Below, piece by piece: positions 29,515-29,880 of a stretch of 64,000 nucleotides of DNA. Positions within the stretch are counted from its first letter, which is position 1; each line of letters opens with the position of its first letter. Below the pieces are notes generated by a model. That model saw nothing but the letters and a program-made list of their open reading frames with translations. It did not search any database and had not been told where the DNA came from. Location: NCBI RefSeq assembly GCF_009931435.1, contig NZ_CP043414.1. One strand, written 5' to 3'. The stretch is from Escherichia coli. Its GTDB lineage: Bacteria > Pseudomonadota > Gammaproteobacteria > Enterobacterales > Enterobacteriaceae. The position numbers were made by a program, and so were the translations under genes.

Positions 29515-29880
29515 CATGCCTGATGCGACGCTTATCGCGTCTTATCAGGCCTACAGGTTTTACGTAGGTCGGATAAGGCGTTCACGCCGCATCCGACATT
29601 GAGTGCATAATGCCTGATGCGACGCTTACTGCGTCTTATCAGGCCTACAGATTTCACGTAGGTCGGATAAGGCGCTTACGCCGCATCCGACATTGAGTGC
29701 ATAATGCCTGATGCGACGCTTACCGCGTCTTATCAGGCCTACAGGTTTTACGTAGGTCGGATAAGGCGTTCACGCCGCATCCGACATTGAGTGCATAATG
29801 CCTGATGCGACGCTTACCGCGTCTTATCAGGCCTACAGGTTTCACGTAGGTCGGATAAGGCGTTCACGCCGCATCCGACA
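29515..29880. repeat. Tandem REP/BIME array, four units of ~94 bp
   Basis: Repeated GCCTGATGCGACGCTT..GCGTCTTATCAGGCCTACA...GTAGGTCGGATAAGGCGTTCACGCCGCATCCGACA units between convergent yfcL and mnmC. Confidence 0.9.

Follow-up and report, generated by a model that had tools for sequence, protein, structure and literature searches.

A y/z2 BIME-2 array of four tandem units between the convergent genes yfcL and mnmC in an Escherichia coli genome

The gap between yfcL and mnmC in the 64,000-nucleotide stretch of E. coli DNA that we analysed (contig NZ_CP043414.1, hereafter the window) is filled by an ordinary enterobacterial BIME-2, a well-known kind of intergenic repeat. Two points alone set it apart: none of the 5,426 complete E. 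coli genomes compared has as many as four units at this site, and alleles with more than one unit are limited here to a single divergent Escherichia lineage. Such arrays, and the variation in their number of copies, are known from work going back to the 1990s, and the locus conforms to that literature. Taken as a whole, we consider it about 90% probable that the region is best explained as a y + z2 BIME-2 that was amplified locally, that varies nearly neutrally in copy number and for which hairpin and gyrase-related roles may be inferred. The original prediction, which had already read the region as a tandem REP/BIME array, was correct in observation and interpretation except for its suggestion of an IHF site.

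yfcL lies on the plus strand and mnmC on the minus strand, and the two genes are therefore convergent, as predicted; this placement is supported by the open reading frames as well as by the RefSeq annotation of homologous loci. The gap (29495-29897, 403 bp) lies entirely between the two stop codons and is almost wholly occupied by the array, whose features are listed here in window coordinates:

29216-29494, plus strand: yfcL, 92 aa, from the ORF list, with the stop codon at 29492-29494; relatives are annotated as 'YfcL family protein' (RefSeq)
29495-29517: left flank or leader GTTGTTGGCGTCTGGAGCGTCAT, 23 nt from the yfcL stop to the first hairpin, the same in the one-unit allele of strain 2EC1
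29518-29554, minus strand: z2-type REP no. 1, 37 nt, GTAG plus GCCTGAT/AA/GACGC-loop-GCGTC/GC/ATCAGGC
29544-29554, plus strand: ATCAGGCCTAC, the natural IS621 target, within z2-type REP no. 1
29555-29563: head-to-head linker, 9 nt, AGGTTTTAC
29564-29597, plus strand: y-type REP no. 1, 34 nt (35 with the trailing A), GTAG plus GTCGGAT/AA/GGCG-loop-CGCC/GC/ATCCGAC
29598-29611: tail-to-tail linker ATTGAGTGCATAAT, marking the junction of tandem units, with exact repeats at 29692-29705 and 29786-29799
29612-29648, minus strand: z2-type REP no. 2
29649-29657, 29743-29751 and 29837-29845: further head-to-head linkers, 9 nt
29658-29691, plus strand: y-type REP no. 2, with the loop variant CTTA
29706-29742, minus strand: z2-type REP no. 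3
29752-29785, plus strand: y-type REP no. 3
29800-29836, minus strand: z2-type REP no. 4
29846-29879, plus strand: y-type REP no. 4, with 18 nt between its hairpin and the stop codon of mnmC
29880-29897: right flank, from the last y REP to the mnmC stop codon
29898-31904, minus strand: mnmC, 668 aa from a GTG at 31904; the ORF is open to 31964, and the GTG start fits the 2007-bp annotation of relatives

Tandem Repeats Finder returned a period of 94 with 3.9 copies, 95% matches and 0% indels (score 681) at 29516-29880, and a direct-repeat finder gave start-to-start spacings of 94, 94 and 94, which confirms the predicted array of four units of about 94 bp, a count that rests on correct assembly of the 376-bp tandem repeat. 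The final unit has no tail-to-tail linker, hence 3.9 units with eight complete palindromes. These follow one another in the orientation - + - + - + - +, so that each unit consists, as had been claimed, of two inverted REPs, a z2 on the minus and a y on the plus strand, whose GTAG ends face each other (head-to-head), and successive units adjoin tail-to-tail. The tail-to-tail linker of 12-14 nt (ATTGAGTGCATAAT includes the shared end bases) is the same at all three junctions, the head-to-head linker takes the form AGGTTTTAC, AGATTTCAC or AGGTTTCAC, and unit-to-unit differences are limited to loops and linkers. A structural finder set to require GTAG, a lower stem of 7 bp, the AA/GC mismatch and an upper stem yielded exactly eight elements in the array, each of which opens with GTAG when read on its own strand and also has a loop. 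Furthermore, a degenerate REP pattern had 14 matches in the window, eight of them inside the array, compared with none in 100 dinucleotide-preserving shuffles. Altogether 16 REP cores are spread over three intergenic sites of the window, and the median number of matching places per genome was 12 across the 5,426 complete E. coli genomes.

Palindromic repeats at regular intervals, together with a pair of identical short ORFs (41 aa each, 29532-29657 and 29720-29845, minus strand), give the region a superficial likeness to a CRISPR array or a protein-coding repeat. We assign these two readings practically no probability, and both are refuted by the sequence: the complete 94-bp unit is repeated at 95% identity, so no remainder is available to serve as a CRISPR spacer, and the units are contiguous and without unique spacers, exactly as the original prediction had argued against CRISPR; a period of 94 bp is not divisible by three, and both ORFs fall within palindromes and recur every two units; and the palindromes themselves are canonical GTAG-type REPs. 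A clean annotation of the array thus guards against miscalling it as a CRISPR, an sRNA gene cluster or a coding sequence.

REPs of E. coli are imperfect palindromes of 30-40 nt with a conserved 5' GTAG and fall into the types y, z1 and z2, from which two classes of composite element are built: BIME-1, which joins z1 and y through a long, IHF-binding L linker and occurs in single copy, and BIME-2, which joins z2 and y through a short linker and occurs in multiple tandem copies, the number of which differs by locus and strain (PMC3333891). Published lengths are 35 nt for y, 29 nt for z1 and 37 nt for z2, with a conserved AA-GC bulge (PMC8266576), and reference sequences for the three types have been printed (PMC11208160). 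With 34-35 and 37 nt, the palindromes of the array fit the lengths published for y and z2 (PMC8266576), and their stems, mismatch and length correspond to those of the two reference sequences (PMC11208160). As a control, the same finder sorted the elements flanking K-12 rayT, labelled as a y REP and a z2 iREP in PMC3333891, into the same two classes, and it did likewise with those of the BIME-2 between sucB and sucC (PMC6379681). All features of an E. coli-type REP were found, namely the GTAG, the AA/GC-interrupted stem, the extragenic location and the many copies, together with those of a BIME-2, namely y and z2 in alternating orientation, 9-nt linkers, tandem copies and a strain-variable number.

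Neither a 29-nt z1 REP nor a long linker is present in the array, in which the linkers measure 9 and 14 nt, and no IHF consensus occurs in 29495-29897. The matches to y and z2 and the absence of z1, of a long linker and of an IHF consensus therefore place the array in BIME-2, and a BIME-1/IHF reading was ruled out by the same three absences. This is the point at which the original prediction, which had listed IHF among possible ligands, does not hold: IHF sites belong to the L linker of BIME-1 and the suggestion is inapplicable to a BIME-2, so that IHF binding at the array is not expected.

The window contains a second BIME-2 array in the gap between dedD and cvpA (42631-43146), comprising seven REPs at 42672-42982 (four y on the plus strand and three z2 on the minus strand) with a period of 91. 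Its linkers are unlike those between yfcL and mnmC, measuring 17 nt head-to-head and 5-6 nt tail-to-tail, and CTGT replaces CTAC in two of its three z2 copies. At this site the closest relative, RMDEC465, has only three REPs, and alleles of the same and of larger size occur in other E. coli genomes, which marks the dedD-cvpA array as ordinary. In addition, a single REP (33290-33325, plus strand) follows the fabB stop codon (33283) and combines a y-like lower stem (GTCGGAT) with a z2-like upper stem (GACGC).

We found the yfcL-mnmC locus in all but one of the 5,426 complete E. coli genomes, and it falls into discrete size classes with 1, 2, 4 or 6 palindromes, compared with 8 in the window. Comparing copy number among strains had been proposed as a check, and the strain variation it anticipated is evident in the resulting allelic series:

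Lone y palindrome without GTAG, gap of 55 bp, e.g. FDAARGOS_448 (locus L004): 5 of 59 sampled chromosomal rows (~8%)
One z2-y pair, gap of 120 bp, e.g. K-12 (locus L001): 51 of 59 sampled rows (~86%)
Two pairs, gap of 215 bp, e.g. RMDEC465 (locus L003): 6 genomes
Three pairs, gap of 309 bp, e.g. Z0117EC0005 (locus L002): 8 genomes
Four pairs, gap of 403 bp, the window: 0 of 5,426 genomes

The frequencies of the lone-y and one-pair alleles derive from 59 chromosomal rows taken as an even sample of the match ranking, and the multi-unit counts from a probe of 37 nt that has the tail-to-tail junction in its middle and was applied across the 5,426 genomes. This junction was found in 14 genomes, always at yfcL-mnmC, with two junctions in eight of them and one in six; three junctions, as in the window, occurred in none of the 5,426. 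In the minimal allele, that of FDAARGOS_448 (L004, 796-850), the y-type palindrome stands alone, has no GTAG and starts some 7 nt behind the yfcL stop.

All 14 junction-bearing genomes belong to the divergent group of the window, with mnmC 97.6-99.1% identical to that of the window, compared with about 93% for mainstream E. coli. Within this lineage the gap measures 121 (strain 2EC1), 215, 309 or 403 bp, that is, it grows in exact 94-bp steps; in mainstream E. coli it is 55 or 120 bp long. The single unit of 2EC1 can be read as unit 1 of the window on its left side and as unit 4 on its right, between flanks that are the same, and linker and loop variants are differently distributed among the units between strains. 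Across the window, identity reaches 98-99% to only some 20-30 RefSeq genomes that bear the name E. coli (RMDEC465, R32_14_1F, 2013C-4282 and 2EC1 among them) and amounts to 91-94% at the locus when K-12-like genomes or the E. coli representative of GTDB are compared, a profile that suggests a divergent or cryptic Escherichia lineage. The tail-to-tail junction CCGACATTGAGTGCATAATGCCTGATG provides a marker of this lineage, as it occurs in only 14 of the 5,426 E. coli genomes and has no exact match among 100,044 species-representative genomes.

How the array may have arisen can be outlined from these alleles. A resident single z2-y pair, the state of ~86% of the sampled E. coli, would have been tandemly duplicated in one divergent Escherichia lineage, and whole 94-bp units would then have been gained and lost by unequal homologous exchange or by replication slippage between units; the RayT transposase may assist such gain and loss but would not be required. 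The 94-bp steps and the allele pattern fit whole-unit gain and loss by unequal exchange or slippage, probably with some homogenisation between units. Import of the extra units from another locus was rejected, as the junction occurs solely at yfcL-mnmC in all 14 genomes. Given that the number of palindromes at the site ranges from one to eight, growth to four units is most easily seen as near-neutral, and the copy number is most likely a nearly neutral polymorphism.

An independent case of amplification was found at the same site. A genome scan with a degenerate YfcL C-terminus returned two loci only, in E. coli E69, which has one pair, and in a sister species, Escherichia sp. E1V33, both outside the lineage of the window (91-94% identity). 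E1V33 carries an independent three-unit array with a period of 93 at the same yfcL-mnmC site (L012, 4254-4526), and its junction TTGGGAGCACCA contains its own left flank (TCTGGAGCACCA), which reads as a clear signature of local tandem duplication. GTAG has been lost from two of the y copies in E1V33. The junction of the window is identical to that of E1V33 at 8 of 12 positions and to the left flank of the window itself at only 6 of 12, so that the first duplication in the window would be older or less transparent than that in E1V33.

Whether the repeat is more than a selfish or neutral passenger has to be considered at this point, as a REPIN-like non-autonomous doublet that was spread by RayT, expanded by slippage and has no host function would produce much of the same picture. 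The extreme allelic variation (1, 2, 4, 6 and 8 palindromes, and an IS621 insertion in one strain examined) shows no sign of constraint, rayT exists in the lineage of the window, and TnpAREP recombines BIMEs in vitro into multi-REP products (PMC3333891). Against this, a REP has been retained at the exact site in E. coli, in the lineage of the window and in Escherichia sp. E1V33, and the gap holds no other terminator-like structure. We regard the purely selfish reading as possible yet doubtful; with regard to copy number it overlaps with the locally amplified, near-neutral BIME-2 that we prefer.

The transposase itself was sought because the original prediction had proposed looking for a REP-associated tyrosine transposase elsewhere in the genome. 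This search was negative within the 64-kb window, where tblastn with K-12 RayT gave a best E-value of 0.46, and positive in a relative from the same lineage, E500002, which has the three-unit allele and carries rayT; a RAYT is thus available to the lineage but unlinked to the array. With no RAYT gene adjacent to the array or in the window, the array is a dispersed BIME and not a REPtron. By megablast, rayT is detectable in only 3,575 of the 5,426 complete E. coli genomes, whereas practically all of them contain REPs.

Every z2 also carries an exact copy of the 11-nt sequence ATCAGGCCTAC, which is the natural target of IS621 (PMC11208160): four copies lie in the array and one elsewhere in the window, compared with 0.01 expected. 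In strain OkiPb01681 (L005, 1-1260), IS621, an IS110-family element with a bridge-RNA recombinase, is inserted in the z2 REP of the yfcL-mnmC gap, and its end abuts ...CT/ACACGTCAC, corresponding to the CT core of the z2 ATCAGGCCT/AC. A shortened match like that of OkiPb01681 was seen in 2 of 59 evenly sampled genomes, and IS621 was confirmed in OkiPb01681, the one inspected. The IS621 target is a general property of z2 REPs and not special to this array.

Turning to a possible function, neither an intrinsic terminator nor a sigma-70-like promoter was found in the yfcL-mnmC gap. RNA folding of the whole array gave z-scores of -12.8 (plus strand) and -11.5 (minus strand) relative to shuffled controls, with about -19 to -22 kcal/mol for each hairpin on either strand. 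Either of the convergent transcripts would enter the array and fold into a row of stable hairpins, which would be expected to hinder 3'-to-5' exonucleases and to attenuate read-through in the terminator-less gap. REPs and BIMEs have long been proposed to protect 3' ends and to attenuate read-through, for which our sources cite earlier work, and by analogy this would most likely be what the resident REP pair does. At the DNA level, the y REPs are probably preferred sites of DNA gyrase: gyrase cleavage is enriched in BIME-2 with a preference for y REPs, and only a subset are strong sites in vivo (PMC6379681). Gyrase binding is accordingly described here as a plausible second role between convergent genes, by analogy with these data; the accessible part of the gyrase-map supplements (PMC6379681) makes no mention of yfcL or mnmC. 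Four units cannot be required for any function, given that ~8% of the sampled genomes have a lone y and most of them a single pair.

Proximity to stop codons is a further aspect, as a REP hairpin less than 16 nt from a stop codon is reported, as cited in PMC12306157, to stall terminating ribosomes. The hairpins of the array begin 23 nt from the yfcL stop and 18 nt from the mnmC stop, and at these distances stop-codon-proximal stalling is not predicted. Unlike the array, the lone y of FDAARGOS_448, at ~7 nt from the yfcL stop, lies inside the reported range, and the hairpin of the fabB REP, which starts ~10 nt after the stop codon, lies inside it as well.

Three Y-linker-Z2 modules of the array (29567-29645, 29661-29739 and 29755-29833, plus strand) match the Rfam family naRNA4 (RF02564) with 81.2-81.8 bits, compared with a gathering score of 59.5, and all three cover the full model (1-77). 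Apart from naRNA4, the sole above-threshold Rfam match in the window is a tRNA gene on the minus strand (6972-7043, RF00005, 63 bits). The naRNA4 family was modelled on REP325 of K-12, which consists of six Y-l-Z2 units in the yjdM-yjdN intergenic region, and naRNA4 was reported to condense DNA together with HU, the two hairpins Y and Z2 being required, in work on REP325 of K-12 only (Qian et al.). In the cmscan alignment the tail-to-tail linker is like that of REP325 at 8 of 13 positions, and the head-to-head linker is unlike it. The dedD-cvpA array was also matched by the model three times (79-81 bits), and the score hence shows membership in the BIME-2 sequence type and not function.

These matches lie on the strand co-directional with yfcL and, together with a unit architecture and polarity as in REP325 and the DNA condensation by naRNA4 and HU reported by Qian et al., they give rise to another reading, in which the array would be a multi-copy naRNA4-type cluster: a transcript from the yfcL promoter would be processed to HU-binding RNAs of ~80 nt that bridge cruciform DNA and condense the nucleoid. 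We consider this unlikely, because RF02564 in effect models any BIME-2 unit, as the match to the dedD-cvpA array illustrates, because experimental support is confined to REP325, because most E. coli have a single unit at the site and some a lone y, and because no promoter lies within the yfcL-mnmC gap.

A near-neutral BIME-2 thus remains our preferred reading of the four-unit expansion. That the expansion itself is non-neutral appears still less probable to us than a naRNA4-type cluster; by analogy with the systems above, it could then act as a second REP325-like locus yielding HU-binding naRNA-type transcripts from the yfcL promoter, or as a stronger gyrase or topological barrier, and its four tandem IS621 targets could form a preferred landing pad. 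The allelic series is well resolved (121, 215, 309 and 403 bp) and offers a natural test set for relating REP number to 3'-end formation between convergent genes.

Comparing the array with known systems, inverted REP pairs in 3' intergenic regions are common to it and to BIME-1 (RIB/RIP). BIME-1, in contrast, occurs in single copy and combines a 29-nt z1 REP with a long L linker that contains an IHF site; none of this applies to the array, which is tandem. With REPIN/REPtron systems the array shares the inverted REP doublet with a 5' GTAG and a stem mismatch, the binding requirements of TnpAREP, and it also has CT dinucleotides at the published cleavage positions (PMC3333891). With respect to IS621 targets, the array of the window is uninterrupted, whereas the corresponding site of OkiPb01681 is occupied.

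The likeness to REP325 extends to the order of the module, in which z2, head-to-head linker, y and tail-to-tail linker are common to both, and to the polarity relative to the upstream gene, which is equal. The tail-to-tail linkers appear related, with AACGGTGCCGACT in REP325 and ATTGAGTGCATAAT in the array sharing a GTGC core. The two differ in period and described number of units (100 bp and six in REP325, 94 bp and four in the array) and in the head-to-head linker (17 nt versus 9 nt); moreover, REP325 lies between co-directional genes and the array between convergent ones, and discrete RNAs that bind HU have been shown for REP325 only.

The closest correspondence is to the BIME-2 elements of E. 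coli. With these, of which sucB-sucC, tldD-yhdP and the rayT flanks provide examples, the array has in common the alternation of y and z2, a short head-to-head linker, tandem multiplication, the close similarity of units within a locus, locus-specific linkers and a strain-variable copy number. The differences are of detail: the z2 loop has 5 nt, one more than in reference copies from K-12, a compensated C-G to T-A change (GTCGGAT/ATCCGAC) distinguishes the lower stem of y from the reference, and the head-to-head linker measures 9 nt compared with 12-17 nt in the K-12 BIME-2 copies examined.
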